This document shows positions 13,844-34,097 of a stretch of 34,190 nt of DNA, one piece after another. The position numbers and the translations under genes were made by a program. This DNA comes from a virus (taxonomy: Duplodnaviria > Caudoviricetes), in IMG/VR virus record IMGVR_UViG_3300011337_000727, positions 1-34,190 of that record. The stretch is one strand, 5' to 3'. Positions within the stretch are counted from its first letter, which is position 1. Every line of letters begins with the position of its first letter. The notes beneath the pieces are model-generated. The model had not been told where the DNA came from. It did no database searches and worked only from the letters and a program-made list of their open reading frames with translations.

Positions 13844-14052
13844 GCCATTTTATAATTGAAAACACAAATGGCATCAGGGAAATGGTGCATTTTTTAAATC
13901 TCAAACAATCCGAAAAATTCAATGTCCCAGCTGCCAACAGTAGGGTAAACGATTGGGTCAATATTCGCCCGGATTTTTCGGGCAAAATCATCAGTATTCG
14001 CCACGATTTTTATGATGAAAATGGAAAACTTATCAGCAAATTAAAATTATGA
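13834..14052 (+). CDS. Hypothetical protein
   Basis: 72 aa; ATGA overlap with the next gene. Confidence 0.6.
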   Translation: MVISHFIIENTNGIREMVHFLNLKQSEKFNVPAANSRVNDWVNIRPDFSGKIISIRHDFYDENGKLISKLKL

Positions 14053-14264
14053 ACGATGAAATCAGAAGCATTTTTACAAGGCTTAAGGCGGAGCGCATTC
14101 GCCAGCGCAAATCTCAAACAGAGATTGCGAAATCAATGGGGATTGATCGGTCAGCAGTTTCGAAAATGGAGACTGGTCGAAATATCAGCCTTAATCGGAC
14201 TTTACAATATGCCCGAATCCTGGGATATAAAATCAAAATTGAAACTGATGGAATTGAAAATTAA
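14049..14264 (+). CDS. XRE-family helix-turn-helix regulator
   Basis: LKAERIRQRKSQTEIAKSMGIDRSAVSKMETG is a classic HTH_3 pattern. Confidence 0.9.
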   Translation: MNDEIRSIFTRLKAERIRQRKSQTEIAKSMGIDRSAVSKMETGRNISLNRTLQYARILGYKIKIETDGIEN

Positions 14265-14559
14265 GTTGGGGCGGAAGTATTGGACAATCAAACCTCCAAT
14301 GGATATATCTGATCCATTTGTTCACCCATGGTTGGTTCAGTTTTATTCCTCCGATCAAGGGGTTGATTTTTTCCGGGATGATGCTGGAAACGGTTTTTTG
14401 ATGTCCAGCGAGAAATCGCCAGGGGAATTCCTTTTTGAATCCGCAGACACGGCATTGAATGCCTATTACCACCGAAAAATCCAGCTTAACGAAGCCAAAA
14501 TTTTTGAACTGCTGGAAGAAAACAAGATTTTTTACACGATGATCAAGTCAATCATATGA
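14248..14559 (+). CDS. Hypothetical protein
   Basis: ATG 14248 preferred, to avoid full overlap with the HTH gene; ATGA-coupled to the next gene. Confidence 0.65.
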   Translation: MELKIKLGRKYWTIKPPMDISDPFVHPWLVQFYSSDQGVDFFRDDAGNGFLMSSEKSPGEFLFESADTALNAYYHRKIQLNEAKIFELLEENKIFYTMIKSII

Positions 14560-15149: not shown

Positions 15150-15395
15150 ATGGGAGCGCCAAAAAATAACCAATATGGATTGAAATATCAGTCCAAAATG
15201 GTCAATTCGGTGACCTTTAAAATGCCGAAGCCGGAATGGGAGTTATTTTTATCCTGGGCAGGGCAAAGGTGCCGGTCAGAATTAATCAGAGAAACAATTT
15301 TAAACAGAATCGAAAATGAAAAAACACTGGAGTCCGGAGGAAGACCGAAAATTGGTCAACATTTACCCACGGATGCACAATATGGAGGTTTCTGA
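15150..15395 (+). CDS. Small DNA-binding protein (ribbon-helix-helix-like)
   Basis: MGAPKNNQYG N-terminus; VTFKMP..RSELIRETI. Confidence 0.5.
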   Translation: MGAPKNNQYGLKYQSKMVNSVTFKMPKPEWELFLSWAGQRCRSELIRETILNRIENEKTLESGGRPKIGQHLPTDAQYGGF

Positions 15396-15543
15396 AGCGA
15401 TGCAGCGATCATATGGAAGCGTTGTCGGTAGGGCGCAAGTTCTTGGCCTAAAAAAGGATCCAGCATATATCCGAAGGGATAACGTAAAAGCATTGGCGAT
15501 GTTGGGGATTAGAAAGTACAAATGTTTAAATTATTACAAATGA
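15316..15543 (+). CDS. Myb/HTH-like small protein whose C-terminus is read from attC-like site 0 (interrupted gene)
   Basis: WSPEEDRKL..YP..RS..SV..RA..LGLKK; residues after RRDN lie within the hairpin's left arm and loop. Confidence 0.65.
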   Translation: MKKHWSPEEDRKLVNIYPRMHNMEVSEAMQRSYGSVVGRAQVLGLKKDPAYIRRDNVKALAMLGIRKYKCLNYYK

Positions 15544-15608
15544 AAGTAGAAAGCACAAAAGATGAAATTAAGAACGAAAGCCCCAATATTGCCAATGCAG
15601 TGTTAGCG
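15477..15608 (-). repeat. attC-like site 0
   Basis: GGATAAC (15477-83); arm GCATTGGCGATGTTGGGG (15490-507) pairs with CCCCAATATTGCCAATGC (15581-98) with 2 G:T; GTTAGCG (15602-08). Confidence 0.8.
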
Positions 15609-15623
15609 GATGTGCTGGGTTAA
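15540..15623 (+). CDS. 27-aa leader peptide starting in the attC0 loop
   Basis: MKVESTKDEIKNESPNIANAVLADVLG; ATGA overlap with the upstream stop; start resembles MTIESTN of attC2. Confidence 0.45.
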   Translation: MKVESTKDEIKNESPNIANAVLADVLG

Positions 15624-15657
15624 ATAACGGATTTTTAAACTTTAAAAAATAAATAAA

Positions 15658-15930
15658 ATGTCAAAACAAAAAGAAGTAAAACTCGATGAGATACAAAATG
15701 AAGAAATGTATTGTTTAGTTGCACCTGACGGCTCTGCTCAAATCACAACATTAGCACCTGATTTCGCAATGTGTATCGGAATGGCTAAATTGATGGCAAG
15801 TAAAGGATTAGGTCAACCTGTTGCAGAAATGTTTAGTCAAGGGTATTCAATTCTGCCTGTAAAAGTTACAATGGTTCAAAACGGCACTGCCGAAGATGGG
15901 TTTCAGTCGGCTCGTAAGCATATCCGCTAA
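15658..15930 (+). CDS. Cassette A hypothetical protein
   Basis: 90 aa; stop TAA lies inside CGCTAAC. Confidence 0.8.
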   Translation: MSKQKEVKLDEIQNEEMYCLVAPDGSAQITTLAPDFAMCIGMAKLMASKGLGQPVAEMFSQGYSILPVKVTMVQNGTAEDGFQSARKHIR

Positions 15931-16055
15931 CGTTATCTCGCTATGAGTAGTGGCGGATTTAGAACTACTCACTTTAAATTTAGAAACAATGTCAAAAAAG
16001 AAAACAAAACTTCAAGAACCGATTAACCCGCCATTACTTATAGCGAGTGTTAGCG
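15925..16055 (-). repeat. attC-like site 1
   Basis: CGCTAAC; 20-bp stem 15937-56 / 16028-47 (2 G:T); GTTAGCG 16049-55. Confidence 0.85.
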
Positions 16056-16189
16056 GTAGTGCTACTACATTAAGCGGAACATCGAATAATGGAACAAACT
16101 CAAGTGTAACAACTAAAATAAGTGGTTTGTTTAGTGATAATTTTAGAACGTATTATGTTGACGAGAGTGGCAAAAAGCATTACCGCTAA
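15989..16189 (+). CDS. Cassette B small protein, N-terminus encoded by attC1
   Basis: ATG in the loop; MSKKKTKLQEPINPPLLIASVSGS..; stop in the next CGCTAAC. Confidence 0.6.
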   Translation: MSKKKTKLQEPINPPLLIASVSGSATTLSGTSNNGTNSSVTTKISGLFSDNFRTYYVDESGKKHYR

Positions 16190-16314
16190 CGGTTTTCCGC
16201 TATGAGTAGTGGCGGATTTAGAACTACTCACTTTAAAATTAGCACAAATGACAATAGAAAGCACAAATGTTCAATTACCACTTCAACCGCCATTACTTAT
16301 AGCGGATGTTAGCG
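16184..16314 (-). repeat. attC-like site 2
   Basis: Near copy of site 1 with compensatory changes (CTCGC/GCGAG vs TCCGC/GCGGA); stem 16196-215 / 16287-306. Confidence 0.85.
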
Positions 16315-16652
16315 GTAGTACTTCTTGGGATGAATGGTTATCTGAAACGGAAACCAAACTCAAAGAATTAGGTTACAGGAGATATGTTCAAAATCATAAA
16401 AACGAGGATTTTTGTTATTGTAAAACTTTTAAAAATGGCGAAAATAAAATTTACCAAATAGGCATATTGTTTTATGATTTTAGGAAGTATGCAGACCGTG
16501 ACCCATACGCAAACAGAATAGGAATAATGTATGAGTGTATGGTTTTAGGTGAAGATAGAATTGATATGCGTGTTAGTAAAAACATTGATTTGGTAGAGTT
16601 TGAAAATATGGCACAAACTTTCTACGGAGCGATGTCGCAGTATTACCGCTAA
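16248..16652 (+). CDS. Cassette C hypothetical protein, N-terminus encoded by attC2
   Basis: ATG in the loop; MTIESTNVQLPLQPPLLIADVSGS..; stop in the next CGCTAAC. Confidence 0.75.
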   Translation: MTIESTNVQLPLQPPLLIADVSGSTSWDEWLSETETKLKELGYRRYVQNHKNEDFCYCKTFKNGENKIYQIGILFYDFRKYADRDPYANRIGIMYECMVLGEDRIDMRVSKNIDLVEFENMAQTFYGAMSQYYR

Positions 16653-16739
16653 CGTTTTCGGGCTTGGCGAAGGTTGGCTTGTAGGATGCTCAAATTTAGC
16701 AGAATGTTTCTGCCCACTTTTGCCAAACCCGTGTTATGC
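16647..16739 (-). repeat. attC-like site 3
   Basis: CGCTAAC; stem 16659-78 / 16712-31 (16 Watson-Crick pairs, 2 G:T, 2 mismatches); GTTATGC 16733-39. Confidence 0.8.
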
Positions 16740-16777
16740 GTTCGGGCGGTATTTGAAAACGAATTAAATTTTAAAAT

Positions 16778-17308
16778 ATGAATAGTAAAATAATCAGCTT
16801 CGCAATTGAAGCACACAACAACACTAACCATTTATACGATGGTAAACCTTATTCGGTGCATTTGTCAATGGTAGCAATGATTGCACAAAAGTATATTGAC
16901 TGCATACCTGAACAAGCACAAAGAGATGTATTATCCGCTTGTTGGTTGCACGATACTATTGAGGATTGCAGAATGACTTACAACGACATTAAGCAAGTAG
17001 CTGGCGAAACGGTTGCAAACATTGTTTATGCCGTAACCAATGAAAAGGGTAAGAACAGAAAAGAAAGAGCAAATGATGCTTATTATGATGGTATCAGAAA
17101 AACAATGTGGGCAAAGTATGTAAAGCTATGTGATAGACTTGCAAACGTGCAATACAGCTACGATAATACGTCAAGAATGTATGGTGTTTATCAAAAAGAG
17201 AATGATGCTTTTTTGCAAGCATTGTTTCCCAATGAAAGCGAAATGCACCACTACCGAGATATTGTAAATGATTTGAAAATGTTGTTGGGTTACACGGTCG
17301 TAGCCTGA
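16778..17308 (+). CDS. Cassette D: HD-domain hydrolase, RelA/SpoT hydrolase (SAH/Mesh1)-like
   Basis: FAIEAH..GKPYSVHL..V, ACWLHDTIEDC, VYAVT, VKLCDRLAN motifs. Confidence 0.85.
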   Translation: MNSKIISFAIEAHNNTNHLYDGKPYSVHLSMVAMIAQKYIDCIPEQAQRDVLSACWLHDTIEDCRMTYNDIKQVAGETVANIVYAVTNEKGKNRKERANDAYYDGIRKTMWAKYVKLCDRLANVQYSYDNTSRMYGVYQKENDAFLQALFPNESEMHHYRDIVNDLKMLLGYTVVA

Positions 17309-17385
17309 CGCATAACTATCCTATTGCCGCAATATTGCTTGATATATCAAAGATTAGATAAGGTGTATAGTTGAACGAGTGAAAC

Positions 17386-17412
17386 GGGGGAGGCGATTGC
17401 TTCCCTCTTTTT
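17386..17412 (+). terminator. Intrinsic terminator after the cassette array
   Basis: GGGGAGGC-GATT-GCTTCCCT followed by CTTTTT. Confidence 0.6.
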
Positions 17413-17417
17413 ACATT

Positions 17418-17681
17418 ATGAAACAATCAAAAGAAAAATACGCAGACCTTTTACTCTCCGACAAATGGATGGAGAAGAGGATTAAAGTATTCAAGCGGGA
17501 TGGGTACAAGTGTCAGCATTGTGGGTTTATTCATTCTGTCTGCCTGTGGTTCATTCTGCCATTCGTGATTGTTCCGTTTCTGATTTTGCTTTATATGGAA
17601 AATAAAACAGTACAAATCCGGAGGCAGATGTTACTTTTTGCGATTCTTGGATTCATATTTGGATTCATTATATTCAAATGA
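17418..17681 (+). pseudogene. HNH-endonuclease N-terminal remnant fused to a two-TM fragment
   Basis: YADLLLSDKWMEKRIKVFKRDGYKCQHCG then an abrupt hydrophobic sequence; no HNH catalytic core. Confidence 0.55.
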
Positions 17682-30961: not shown

Positions 30962-31696
30962 ATGAATATTGATGAACAGATTAAAGACTGGATTAATTCA
31001 ATCGAAAAAGATTTTTATTCAGGTCTTTCGCTTTTGCAGAAGGTTTGCCGCAATAGGGTTTTGGTAATGAACCTGGGTAAAAAAGAAACGCCAAATAATC
31101 TTGAAAAGATTCATTACGAACTAGGGAAATATTTAAATATCGATTACAAGCCGATAATTGTTCCAGAAGTAATTGAAGTTAAAACGGAAAAACCAATTGC
31201 CACAAAGCCGATTGAGGAAAGCGACTATGACATCAAATCACTACCTGATCCGGTTCAAAAATTATTTATCCAGAAGCGTGGATTTTATCTGGAGCGAAAC
31301 AAATTGAGCCAGCAAGTTCAGGATGAAACCAAGGGCCAAACAGTTATTCCAAAATCGGTCCAGAAACTTGTTGTTTCAATTCTGGAACTGGATGAAATGA
31401 TTAAGGCGGTTGACTCTAAAGTCGAATATTACTGGCGATATGGCGCATTGCCGGTTGATGATAAAACACCAGTGGATGACCAGCAGAAAAAAATTACCCT
31501 GGAGGACATCCGGAAGAAAATAAAGAATCAAAACACCTATGTGACCAAAGCACGGCAGCGGTTTGAAAAGAACCCAGAGAATCTGCGTTATGCGGAGGAA
31601 TTGCAAAAAAAGCTTTACGAGCTGAAGGAATTACACTACCAGCGTGATGCACTTTCAATTTCGACACCAGCTGACAAACTACCTGATCCGGCATAA
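30962..31696 (+). CDS. Hypothetical coiled-coil phage protein
   Basis: 244-aa ORF between the head and packaging genes. Confidence 0.75.
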   Translation: MNIDEQIKDWINSIEKDFYSGLSLLQKVCRNRVLVMNLGKKETPNNLEKIHYELGKYLNIDYKPIIVPEVIEVKTEKPIATKPIEESDYDIKSLPDPVQKLFIQKRGFYLERNKLSQQVQDETKGQTVIPKSVQKLVVSILELDEMIKAVDSKVEYYWRYGALPVDDKTPVDDQQKKITLEDIRKKIKNQNTYVTKARQRFEKNPENLRYAEELQKKLYELKELHYQRDALSISTPADKLPDPA

Positions 31697-32062: not shown

Positions 32063-32623
32063 ATGGAAGGGGATAAAATCGACAGATACCGTGCAATTGT
32101 TTTAGGCAAACGAGCCGGAACGGAAAAGCAAAAAGAAAGCGTGGCCAGATTTCGCCATGCGTTTACTATGCTTTGCGAAGGTTTCACGCCTATGCAAACT
32201 GCAAAAGATTTGATCACCACATTTGAAGTTGGGGAAACCATGGCTTTGCGAATTGTTCGTGATTCGGTGGCCGTTTTTGGCGATGCAAATCGATTTTCAA
32301 AGCGTGGAATGAAAATGGCCAATTACGAACGGTTGATGAAGCTGGCCCAGAGATGCGAGGAGCGAGGCGAATTTTCAACCGCCAGACTATTGATTAAAGA
32401 TGCCAACGAATTGTTAGGATTGACCAATGATGATGAAGAGCATTTGGAGAATCCAAGCGAGTGGATGCGTCCGGATGGATTTATCATCATGACAGATCCA
32501 AAGGCGCTCGAAAACGCCCACAAAATAATTGAGTTTGAAACCCAGGATGCGGAGGTGATTGATGAAGAAAAAGGAACAATACCAGATAATTTACCTGACT
32601 CCGAAACAAGCGGAGTTTCTTAA
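32063..32623 (+). CDS. Putative terminase small subunit
   Basis: Helical HTH-like protein immediately upstream of and overlapping terL. Confidence 0.65.
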   Translation: MEGDKIDRYRAIVLGKRAGTEKQKESVARFRHAFTMLCEGFTPMQTAKDLITTFEVGETMALRIVRDSVAVFGDANRFSKRGMKMANYERLMKLAQRCEERGEFSTARLLIKDANELLGLTNDDEEHLENPSEWMRPDGFIIMTDPKALENAHKIIEFETQDAEVIDEEKGTIPDNLPDSETSGVS

Positions 32624-34097
32624 TGCCAGGCAGAAACGAAAAGCATTAATTGCCGGGCGGGGATTCGGGAAAACCCATGTGATGGGGCACCATGTTTTCC
32701 GCTTGTTTCGAAATCTTCCAACCGGAAAATCACTTGCGGTTTCCTCAACTTATTACCAGCTTCTGACAAAGACTTGTCCGGAAATGGAATCTGCATGGAA
32801 GGAGTACGGCATTACCGAATGGGATGATCGGAAAAAGACTGGGCAATGGATTTTTGGTCGAAGGCCACCGGCACACTGGGCGAAGCCGTATAAAATGCCA
32901 AAGAACCCGGAATACTGTTATTTCTTCATTAATGGCCATGTAATTGAACTGGGTAGTCTGGAAGTAAAAGATCGTTTCCGTGGTGGTTCTTATGATGCGC
33001 TTTGTGGTGATGAATCCGCACTTTTTAAGGAGGATGTCTGGAATAAAATATTTGTGACATCAGTCAGAGGTCGGACAATTGGCCCAGGATCATACGACCC
33101 AAGAATTCACTATATGCACCAGTCTATTTGCCATTTCACATCGGCTCCTTGGTCACCGGAGGGCCAATGGGTTTTTAAATGGGAAAAGCTGGCAGAGCAG
33201 ATGCCAGACAAATACTTTTTCATGTCTGGCAAAACCACGGACAACATCGCCATCCTGGGCGAAGATTACATCGATAATCTGAAGAATAGTTTATCGCCGC
33301 TGGAATATTACATCGAGGTTTTGAATGGGCGATTAGATCGCCAGCCCGGTGGCGGATACTATCCAAGCTTTAGTGAGGAAAAACATTCGACCATTATCAC
33401 TTACGATTACGACTGGGATTCTGGTGGAAGGATGACTATCAAAAGGGATTCATTCATTCACCGTGATAAGCCGCTTTTATTATCGCTGGATTTCAACATT
33501 ACATTCACTTGCATGATTGTTTGCCAGCAAATCAATCAAACACAGTTTCAGGAATTCCGTGTTTGCGATAATCTGTTTTCCAAACCTGATCCTTTAAATG
33601 ATAAGGATGGCGAATTACTGATTGACACCTTAATCGACCAGTTCTGCCAGAAGTATTCACACCATCCAATCAAGTATGTGGAATTATACGGCGATGCATC
33701 CGGTAACAACCGAAGACTGGGTGCGCCGCCACTATTCGAACAGGCAGTGGCACGATTAAAGCACAATGGATGGCAGGGGAACATTAAAGCATCAAGTAAG
33801 CTGCCAGGGCATGAGATGCGCCACATATTAATCAACAACATATTGCGCCGAAACGAAATTCGGTTTCCAGTGGTAATGATTAACGCCAACAACTGCCGGG
33901 CATTAATCATGTCGGTGATGAATGCGCCAATCAAAAACGATTACACTAAGGACAAGCGCAGCGAAGCCCAGAACATCCAGCAAGAGTTTGCCACACACCT
34001 GAGCGATACATTCGATTACATCCTTGTGAGTCTATATGCCAGGATCATGGCGAGCGGCAACGACTCCATCTGGTCCAGCATTGTAATCGGGAGATAA
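32559..34097 (+). CDS. terL: Terminase large subunit
   Basis: TPKQ motif; Walker A AGRGFGKT; Walker B ALCGDES; RNase H-like LSLDFN, YGDASG, HLSDTFDY. Confidence 0.95.
   Translation: MMKKKEQYQIIYLTPKQAEFLNARQKRKALIAGRGFGKTHVMGHHVFRLFRNLPTGKSLAVSSTYYQLLTKTCPEMESAWKEYGITEWDDRKKTGQWIFGRRPPAHWAKPYKMPKNPEYCYFFINGHVIELGSLEVKDRFRGGSYDALCGDESALFKEDVWNKIFVTSVRGRTIGPGSYDPRIHYMHQSICHFTSAPWSPEGQWVFKWEKLAEQMPDKYFFMSGKTTDNIAILGEDYIDNLKNSLSPLEYYIEVLNGRLDRQPGGGYYPSFSEEKHSTIITYDYDWDSGGRMTIKRDSFIHRDKPLLLSLDFNITFTCMIVCQQINQTQFQEFRVCDNLFSKPDPLNDKDGELLIDTLIDQFCQKYSHHPIKYVELYGDASGNNRRLGAPPLFEQAVARLKHNGWQGNIKASSKLPGHEMRHILINNILRRNEIRFPVVMINANNCRALIMSVMNAPIKNDYTKDKRSEAQNIQQEFATHLSDTFDYILVSLYARIMASGNDSIWSSIVIGR

Follow-up and report, generated by a model that had tools for sequence, protein, structure and literature searches.

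Integron cassettes lie in arrays of single genes separated by attC sites, imperfect hairpins with the cores RYYYAAC and GTTRRRY; the two ends of a cassette are complementary, the exchange takes place at the AAC triplet and stop codons often fall in the core (PMC5027507). Here we describe an array of this kind in a viral contig of 34,190 bases, IMG/VR record IMGVR_UViG_3300011337_000727 (the window, by which the whole stretch analysed is meant), in which four hairpins stand ahead of four small genes and two of these genes appear to start inside the hairpin loops. We propose, with a probability of about 0.8, that the hairpins are integron-like cassette recombination sites which travel with the downstream gene, and that the A-rich loop of the long sites is the translation start of that gene.

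Clusters of attC sites lacking integron-integrases (CALINs) have been reported in phages, including Polaribacter phage P12002L (PMC9892861), and share with the present array that they are integrase-free, lie in Bacteroidota phages and are rich in DNA methylases. Set against the CALIN definition (at least two attC sites and no integrase nearby), the window has four sites and no integrase, yet its sites fail three attC features. P12002L_attC1 is itself a short site of the window family and lies ahead of a methylase gene. Inverted polarity and starts inside the site are not described in that work, the main text of which is without the words "start codon" and "upstream". Short open reading frames (ORFs) in attI and attC (ORF-11 and ORF-17; Jacquier et al., 2009) are known to aid cassette translation (summarised in PMC8876359), and have in common with the present sites that a translated recombination site influences the downstream gene; there, however, a separate leader lies in the site of the upstream cassette or of the platform, whereas here the gene would start in its own site and the arm become its N-terminus. 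We found no description of inverted, start-bearing sites in the literature searched, which covered few subscription papers.

Layout of the array

The window phage carries a four-cassette, integron-like array without a recombinase. Its four hairpins, bounded by TAAC and GTTA, span 15480-15605, 15928-16052, 16187-16311 and 16650-16736, and the features of the array are as follows.

15480-15605, plus strand: attC0, long (126 nt) hairpin site, heads cassette A
15540-15623, plus strand: 27-aa peptide from the attC0 loop ATG, likely a leftover
15658-15930, plus strand: gene A, 90 aa, own start; stops on the TAA of the core that follows
15928-16052, plus strand: attC1, long (125 nt) hairpin site, heads cassette B
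15989-16189, plus strand: gene B, 66 aa, with its likely start in the attC1 loop, at the only in-frame ATG
16187-16311, plus strand: attC2, long (125 nt) hairpin site, heads cassette C; 81% like the attC1 region
16248-16652, plus strand: gene C, 134 aa, likely starting at the attC2 loop ATG
16650-16736, plus strand: attC3, short (87 nt) hairpin site, heads cassette D
16704-16781, plus strand: attC3 open frame, 25 aa (31 aa from 16686), running into the start of the HD gene; probably incidental
16778-17308, plus strand: gene D, HD-domain protein (PF13328), own start
17310-17316, plus strand: terminal core GCATAAC, closing cassette D, with no hairpin behind it

Genes A, B and C end on the TAA of the following core. 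The GTT flank 5′ of each gene agrees with the reverse complement of the 3′ flank of the same gene at 14, 14, 14 and 11 of 15 nt, and is complementary to this flank and not to the other flank of its own hairpin. A fifth TAAC (17313-17316) lies downstream of the genes, the array opening with a complete hairpin and closing on a bare core at 17310-17316; in integrons an attI site and a Pc promoter head the array. A promoter scan of the array region returned 6 sites against 7.4 expected, with nothing above shuffles, and a Bacteroidota promoter motif is absent from the array. The Rfam scan of 15300-17500 returned two weak chance matches only, no family fitting the hairpins, and gene A is without a Pfam or PHROG match. 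From its TAAC at 15480, attC0 was matched in two other genomes at 95-97%.

The initial annotation of this DNA had described a translation start in each loop, and its ATGs, frames, peptides and distances were all recovered. ATG 15989 leads to protein B (..PPLLIASVSGS..) and ATG 16248 to protein C (..PPLLIADVSGS..), both frames crossing the right arm; the 27-aa peptide from ATG 15540 ends with TAA at 15621-15623, 34 nt before the gene A ATG at 15658; and ATGs 16686 and 16704 give peptides of 31 and 25 aa that end in FAKPVLCVRAVFENELNFKI, with a TGA (16779-16781) overlapping the ATG at 16778. In the attC1 and attC2 arms the GTT is read as a codon (V-S-G), in attC0 and attC3 the frame is one base on (V-L), and it is because the arm is read in these two frames that two N-terminal motifs had been noted.

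Comparative set and build of the sites

Three pattern scans of viral contigs gave at least 245 loci (an estimated 830 or so stored viral stretches matched one site pattern), and a site finder detected 590 sites, 521 of them distinct; in 60 real loci it found 185 sites, and after shuffling of these loci (407 kb) it found 1. Site lengths cluster near 87-90 and 119-129 nt, and sites of at least 110 nt are called long. Of 296 stretches between adjacent sites, 232 with complementary ends (at least 5 of 6) were kept as cassettes and the other 64 dropped; complementarity at this level is found in 7% of comparisons between the two flanks of one site. The longest frame has the strand sense of the window in 217 of the 232 cassettes, and the payload proteins form 186 clusters. 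The scan patterns favour window-like sites, so that the cassette set is not a random sample.

By their build the arrays would work like integron cassettes, but the sites fail three attC features. Cores of the attC type (RYYYAAC, GTTRRRY) around an imperfect hairpin are present at the window sites. In 207 of 250 sites the better fold is that of the gene-sense strand, and G-T pairs outnumber A-C pairs (600 vs 229) with loops that are 45% A; one strand is richer in G-T pairs and purines in attC also, but the finder itself favoured the gene-sense strand here. For attC3, taken as core-to-core DNA, the opposite strand has a slight folding advantage. The left spacer, behind the AAC, is longer than the right by 4 nt in 391, 3 nt in 86, 2 nt in 28 and 5 nt in 16 of the 521 sites (3-4 nt in 477), whereas attC has 5-6 nt in each arm. 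The inner stem is without a bulged base in 207 of 239 stems sampled, whereas attC has two or three extrahelical bases; the predicted inner stems of attC0, attC1 and attC2 have none and that of attC3 has one, at pair 14. Finally, the phage gene points away from its own site, and often starts inside it, the site standing 5′ of the gene with which it travels and not 3′ as in attC.

Stop codons peak at two places in the 232 cassettes, the core TAA (50/232) and 16 nt from the cassette end (62/232). In P12002L (L369) there are also very long sites of about 190-220 nt (31117-31314, 32491-32695, 39830-40050 and 40761-40949), the loops of which hold 44-54 codons of annotated genes, gp40 lying almost wholly inside one.

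Association of each hairpin with the downstream gene

Comparison between loci indicates that each hairpin moves together with its downstream gene. In the 8 payload pairs of at least 80% amino acid identity, the mean identity of the upstream sites is 0.85, against 0.52 for the downstream sites and 0.53 for the background, and the upstream site is clearly more alike in 6 of 8 pairs, the downstream site in none; at 50-80% identity (35 pairs) the upstream site is more alike in 24 and the downstream site in 2. For cassette C, 10 partial matches were set aside from the 46 metagenome loci retrieved, and the 36 loci examined gave 30 distinct contexts with a core and 4 without, 2 being collapsed as duplicates. 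Upstream of cassette C, 19 of 26 measurable sites are 88-98% like attC2; downstream, none of 24 is above 61% identity to attC3; and the bases ahead of the upstream TAAC vary between loci. BLAST matches in other genomes start and end at TAAC cores, and the homology between arrays switches at TAAC.

The cassette unit that comes out of this comparison is core-hairpin-GTT-gene-core, with the preceding gene often stopping on the TAA. Since the hairpin travels with the downstream gene, the phage genes are inverted with respect to classical attC polarity, and a loop start is the cassette's own and does not come from a neighbouring cassette. The initial annotation had overlooked this co-travel. A gene starting inside its own recombination site is likely the reverse of the classical integron layout.

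Loop ATGs as candidate starts of genes B and C

The loop ATGs of attC1 and attC2 are likely the real starts of B and C. Neither gene has an in-frame ATG near the GTT core, and in gene C the first other start codon (GTG/TTG) is at residue 74 and the first Met at 94. In the cassette set, 92 of 145 cassettes with long sites and 1 of 87 with short sites have a main frame that runs without a stop from an ATG in the hairpin. In a permutation test using one cassette per cluster, with hairpins permuted among payloads over 2000 rounds, in-frame fusion at long sites was found in 59 of 110 cassettes against 26.0 ± 3.6 permuted (maximum 39), and at short sites in 0 of 76 against 3.7 expected; as short sites do not fuse, fusion is not automatic. 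A payload ATG within 90 nt is absent from 32 of 59 fused and 16 of 127 unfused cassettes. DNA methylases (Mom and the N6/N4 and C5 types) predominate among the fused cassettes, and cREC receiver domains occur in two. Fused methylase genes are carried by cultured Flavobacterium phages, among them phage mumin (gp006 and gp013).

A start-context matrix trained on 60 starts outside hairpins peaks with A at -3, -6, -12 and -13, positions at which A is a positive initiation determinant in Flavobacterium johnsoniae (PMC6847099). With this matrix ATG 15989 scores 2.9 bits and ATG 16248 1.6 bits. The 68 fused loop ATGs have a median of 1.9 bits, compared to -2.8 for 234 internal Met codons, the 90th percentile of which is exceeded by 72% of them; ATGs whose frame stops inside the hairpin (n = 57) score -3.8 bits. 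The context of the fused loop ATG is in the top fifth of positions of the same loop in 31 of 52 cases. When the sites were reduced to 101 families with less than 70% identity, 26 of which are without a loop ATG, frames from strong-context ATGs were open to the core in 41 of 45 families, against 27 of 90 for the other frames (p = 5e-12). Moreover, among 56 fused proteins scanned, 27 have a Pfam match from the first five positions of the profile, and the interval between core and domain start is without ATG in 14 of these and without ATG, GTG or TTG in 7.

The family of attC1 and attC2 (14 sites, 122-125 nt) has its ATG at -60 (13 sites) or -54 (1 site), always in the GTT frame, and heads many unrelated payloads, as would fit the earlier prediction that unrelated phage proteins sharing N-terminal motifs map onto such hairpins; arm-derived N-termini were indeed found. 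In 29 of the 30 cored contexts of cassette C an in-frame ATG lies upstream, the 30th being cut by the contig end; these contexts include three unrelated hairpin families, which meet the cassette at the core and have the ATG at -51, -54 and -72. Among 11 divergent C loci inspected, six have no left arm yet keep the ATG and the arm peptide, and in L418 third-position (synonymous) changes of arm codons destroy the core. The predicted unpaired probability is 0.64-0.65 at the two window starts and 0.00 in the arm, and is 0.67 at the loop starts of 58 fused cassettes.

Loci L410, L411, L413, L414, L418 and L420 (proteins P0060, P0067, P0079, P0088 and P0112) look like fixed former C cassettes with the hairpin lost, and hairpin-less C descendants retain the arm-encoded N-terminus of the PPLL type. 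In L001 and L021 the arm, when read in the V-L frame, can yield the hydrophobic part of a signal peptide like that of lipoproteins, with a Cys behind it; a lipoprotein-signal rule for this frame was dropped as a general rule, the lipobox pattern being present in 1 of 58 fused proteins.

The attC0 and attC3 loops and the origin of cassette B

All four loops contain an ATG, but the use of all four is not borne out: the loop appears to supply the gene start at attC1 and attC2, on the fusion, context and domain tests, and not at attC0 and attC3. ATG 15540 has a typical context (2.3 bits), and the start of gene A has the strongest context tested (7.4 bits), with 33 of 33 gene A homologs beginning at their own Met. 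The attC0 loop as an expression module for A is thus disfavoured, its peptide ending 34 nt early and A and its homologs having their own start, and the attC0 peptide is likely a leftover. An ATG of the attC0 type (-62) heads a metallophosphoesterase in L171 and a C5 methylase in L197; cassette A loci in viral contigs were searched for and none was confirmed.

At attC3, the contexts of ATG 16686 (-10.9 bits) and ATG 16704 (0.5 bits) are very poor and marginal, and the own start of the HD gene scores 3.3 bits; the own starts of A and D lie 56 and 45 nt past the core. The attC3 family has an ATG at -29 in 11 of 11 members, with peptides of 11-25 aa, and the TGA/ATG overlap occurs among them in the window only (for 4 members the next gene start was not found). 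Of five HD relatives, three have a different long site, one a broken site and one no site, attC3 being present in none; four of the five lack the overlap, a -1 overlap being found only in L383/L384, from an ATG of -8.7 bits. Translational coupling of attC3 to the HD gene, as first suggested, is therefore not upheld, given the poor contexts, the HD relatives without attC3 and the frequency of such overlaps in control frames.

Across the whole set, 6 of 11 strong-context leaders of long sites stop between -10 and +1 with respect to the following ATG, as do 23 of 112 control frames (Fisher p = 0.02), and strong leaders of short sites couple in 1 of 9 cases against 30 of 177 control frames, which weakly suggests termination-reinitiation coupling at long sites only. 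We regard as rather unlikely the explanation that all four loop ATGs are functional, with attC0 and attC3 leader peptides opening the hairpin and handing the ribosome on by termination-reinitiation. Such a role would have a precedent in the short ORFs of classical attC sites (PMC8876359) and would agree with the long-site leader stops, the -29 ATG of the attC3 family and the good context at attC0, but the early end of the attC0 leader, the short-site counts, the overlap seen in the window only, the five HD relatives and the strong own starts of A and D all speak against it. In cassettes with their own start, such as A and D, the loop ATGs are likely no more than leftovers or chance occurrences.

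Cassette B had been put forward as captured or de novo DNA. It has 13 homologs of 45-77% identity (the search being limited to 36-116 aa) in which the frame is open and aromatic residues are conserved, and one of these stands under a different arm peptide. Since the frame is open in 13 homologs, B is not freshly captured noncoding DNA; they rule out a recent de novo origin, and such an origin, if any, would be ancient.

Chromosomal counterparts and a candidate recombinase

Flavobacterium cellulosilyticum (L282) has four 118-nt sites of the same build, placed 3′ of genes on the opposite strand. An IntI gene, part of the element in integrons, is absent from the 51 window ORFs; the L282 sites adjoin a tyrosine recombinase that scores 197.8 against a cut-off of 265 for TIGR02249 (IntI), and that matches the archaeal XerA-like 4a8e in one stretch without a large insertion and IntI4 (2a3v) in two. 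The L282 array holds one inverted C5-methylase cassette, the frame of which starts inside its own right-truncated site, and this may be a sign of phage-host cassette exchange. This phage-type cassette (L282:9416-10561) is the last member of the chromosomal, classical-direction array, and a transposase-like gene follows its truncated site.

A genome-contig pattern gave many non-Bacteroidota matches, mostly single chance ones, with at least two sites in 16 of 122 loci. In the 122 loci, 7 cassettes have the classical and 13 the phage direction, the latter coming from metagenome bins and possibly from phage contigs; the classical direction is found only in the chromosomal loci L257, L282 and L291.

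In two near-identical payload pairs and in several C loci the upstream hairpins change exactly at GTT with the frame kept, and 20 pairs of unrelated payloads stand on sites at least 85% alike. It is conceivable, and we put it forward tentatively, that the hairpin is an exchangeable start module in an IntI-independent system of Bacteroidota phages and their hosts, a XerA-like recombinase swapping it at the right core as well as the left, by which any DNA between two inverted cores could gain a ribosome entry and turn into an expressed, mobile gene, to be fixed later with the former arm as N-terminus. The C descendants without the left arm would fit this too. Homologous recombination near the core would be an alternative to such a second crossover.

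Entry of the array into the window phage

The window, a single contig, carries terminase, portal, capsid, tape-measure-like and BT4734-type primase genes. Flavobacterium phages make up 13 of 14 records among its best cultured-phage matches, because of which we infer a Bacteroidota host and regard the window as a phage of Bacteroidota type. In the close relatives L370, L371 and L379 the place of window positions 15471-17525 is taken by an uninterrupted HNH gene of 205 aa and a gene of 73 aa, which gives two further features.

15316-15470, plus strand: 5′ part of the HNH gene (205 aa, intact in three relatives), cut off by the incoming block
15471-17525, no strand: foreign block carrying the array, replacing about 750 bp of the relatives

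One block junction is 10 nt ahead of the first core and the other about 210 nt past the last; because they are off the cores, the array appears to have arrived as a block. A clean site-specific insertion into the window phage is ruled out by the same junctions (15470 and 17526). Window positions 17379-17681 form a chimeric ORF, in which an HNH-like 5′ part from the block gives way at 17526 to what is left of a membrane-protein gene present in the relatives, and a terminator-like hairpin lies at 17386-17407 within this region. Outside the array, a frame of 167 aa (14056-14559) covers with its 5′ part the full length of the HTH gene 14049-14264, which is probably due to the calling of starts.

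Evidence against the proposed model and further alternatives

Several observations weigh against the proposal that the hairpins are recombination sites bearing the start of the downstream gene. As for recombination, no tyrosine recombinase is present among the 51 window ORFs scanned against Pfam and PHROGs, a recombinase motif was found among the genome array loci in L282 only, P12002L_attC1 did not recombine with IntI1 (PMC9892861), and the entry of the array as a block did not occur at cores. For P12002L_attC2, recombination is reported (PMC9892861). Four RNA-labelled runs, as contigs only, showed no circular joint; in them, depth is piled on shared hairpins and loose ends lie near cores, with a best word share of 0.32. 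As for ownership, two of the 8 near-identical payload pairs differ in the upstream site too. As for the starts, loop ATGs of weak context frequently head open frames too (19 of 30 families), an ATG follows the core in 13 of the 27 domain cases, the tally leaves ATT, CTG and ATA starts in play, and the matrix is small, some obvious window genes scoring low with it (the primase, for example, -4.0). Finally, when related sites were compared in 75 independent pairs, the change in length behind the ATG was a multiple of three in 2 of 18 cases and substitutions numbered 136, 113 and 110 at codon positions 1, 2 and 3. Purifying selection on the leader peptide was not found in these pairs, and with no third-position excess and mostly non-triplet length differences the leader amino acids do not appear to be selected; site families occur in both frames, matched to payloads.

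The substitution and length patterns, together with possible near-cognate starts, would suit the explanation that loop ATGs are a matter of chance in AT-rich loops, the real starts being non-ATG codons after the core and the arm N-termini artefacts of ORF calling. The permutation, open-frame, context, domain-start and arm-loss tests all go against it, as does the lack of short-site fusions where 3.7 were expected, and we consider it improbable. Classical ownership, in which the hairpin belongs to the preceding gene and gives a start to whichever cassette lands behind it, fits the gene-site-gene layout of integron arrays, the upstream stops within the left core (50 of 232 cassettes) and the two of 35 pairs with the downstream site more alike, but is very improbable and already largely refuted by the comparison, given the co-travel of sites with the downstream gene, an array that opens with a full hairpin and closes on a bare core, and the same sites lying 3′ of genes on the other strand in L282.

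Discussion

In the model that we favour, with cassette sites that carry the start of the downstream gene, the crossover would take place at AA/C of the gene-sense strand in folded single-stranded DNA, by analogy to attC bottom strands, and the recombinase would be a host XerA-like enzyme similar to the one beside the F. cellulosilyticum array. Initiation would be Shine-Dalgarno-free, at upstream adenines, in the unpaired loop and not in the paired arm; the ribosomes would then read through the right arm, from which B and C would gain an arm-encoded N-terminus of 20 residues. Selection would favour the presence of a start and of a frame that is open and fits the gene, and would not act on the leader amino acids.

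The loop starts would explain a recurring family of odd phage N-termini, and they predict mis-called starts, ORF callers often extending to GTG codons in the left arm; many cassette C homologs are annotated at 147 aa because of this extension. Such sites would be missed by searches relying on standard attC features, and the system points to a cassette recombinase other than IntI. The system bears on the origin of integron cassettes and on the expression of captured DNA that is promoterless and poor in starts. In a very widespread phage system the recombination site appears to double as an initiation region and, if the exchange of start modules is true, their swapping would be a visible route for the birth of cassettes and genes.

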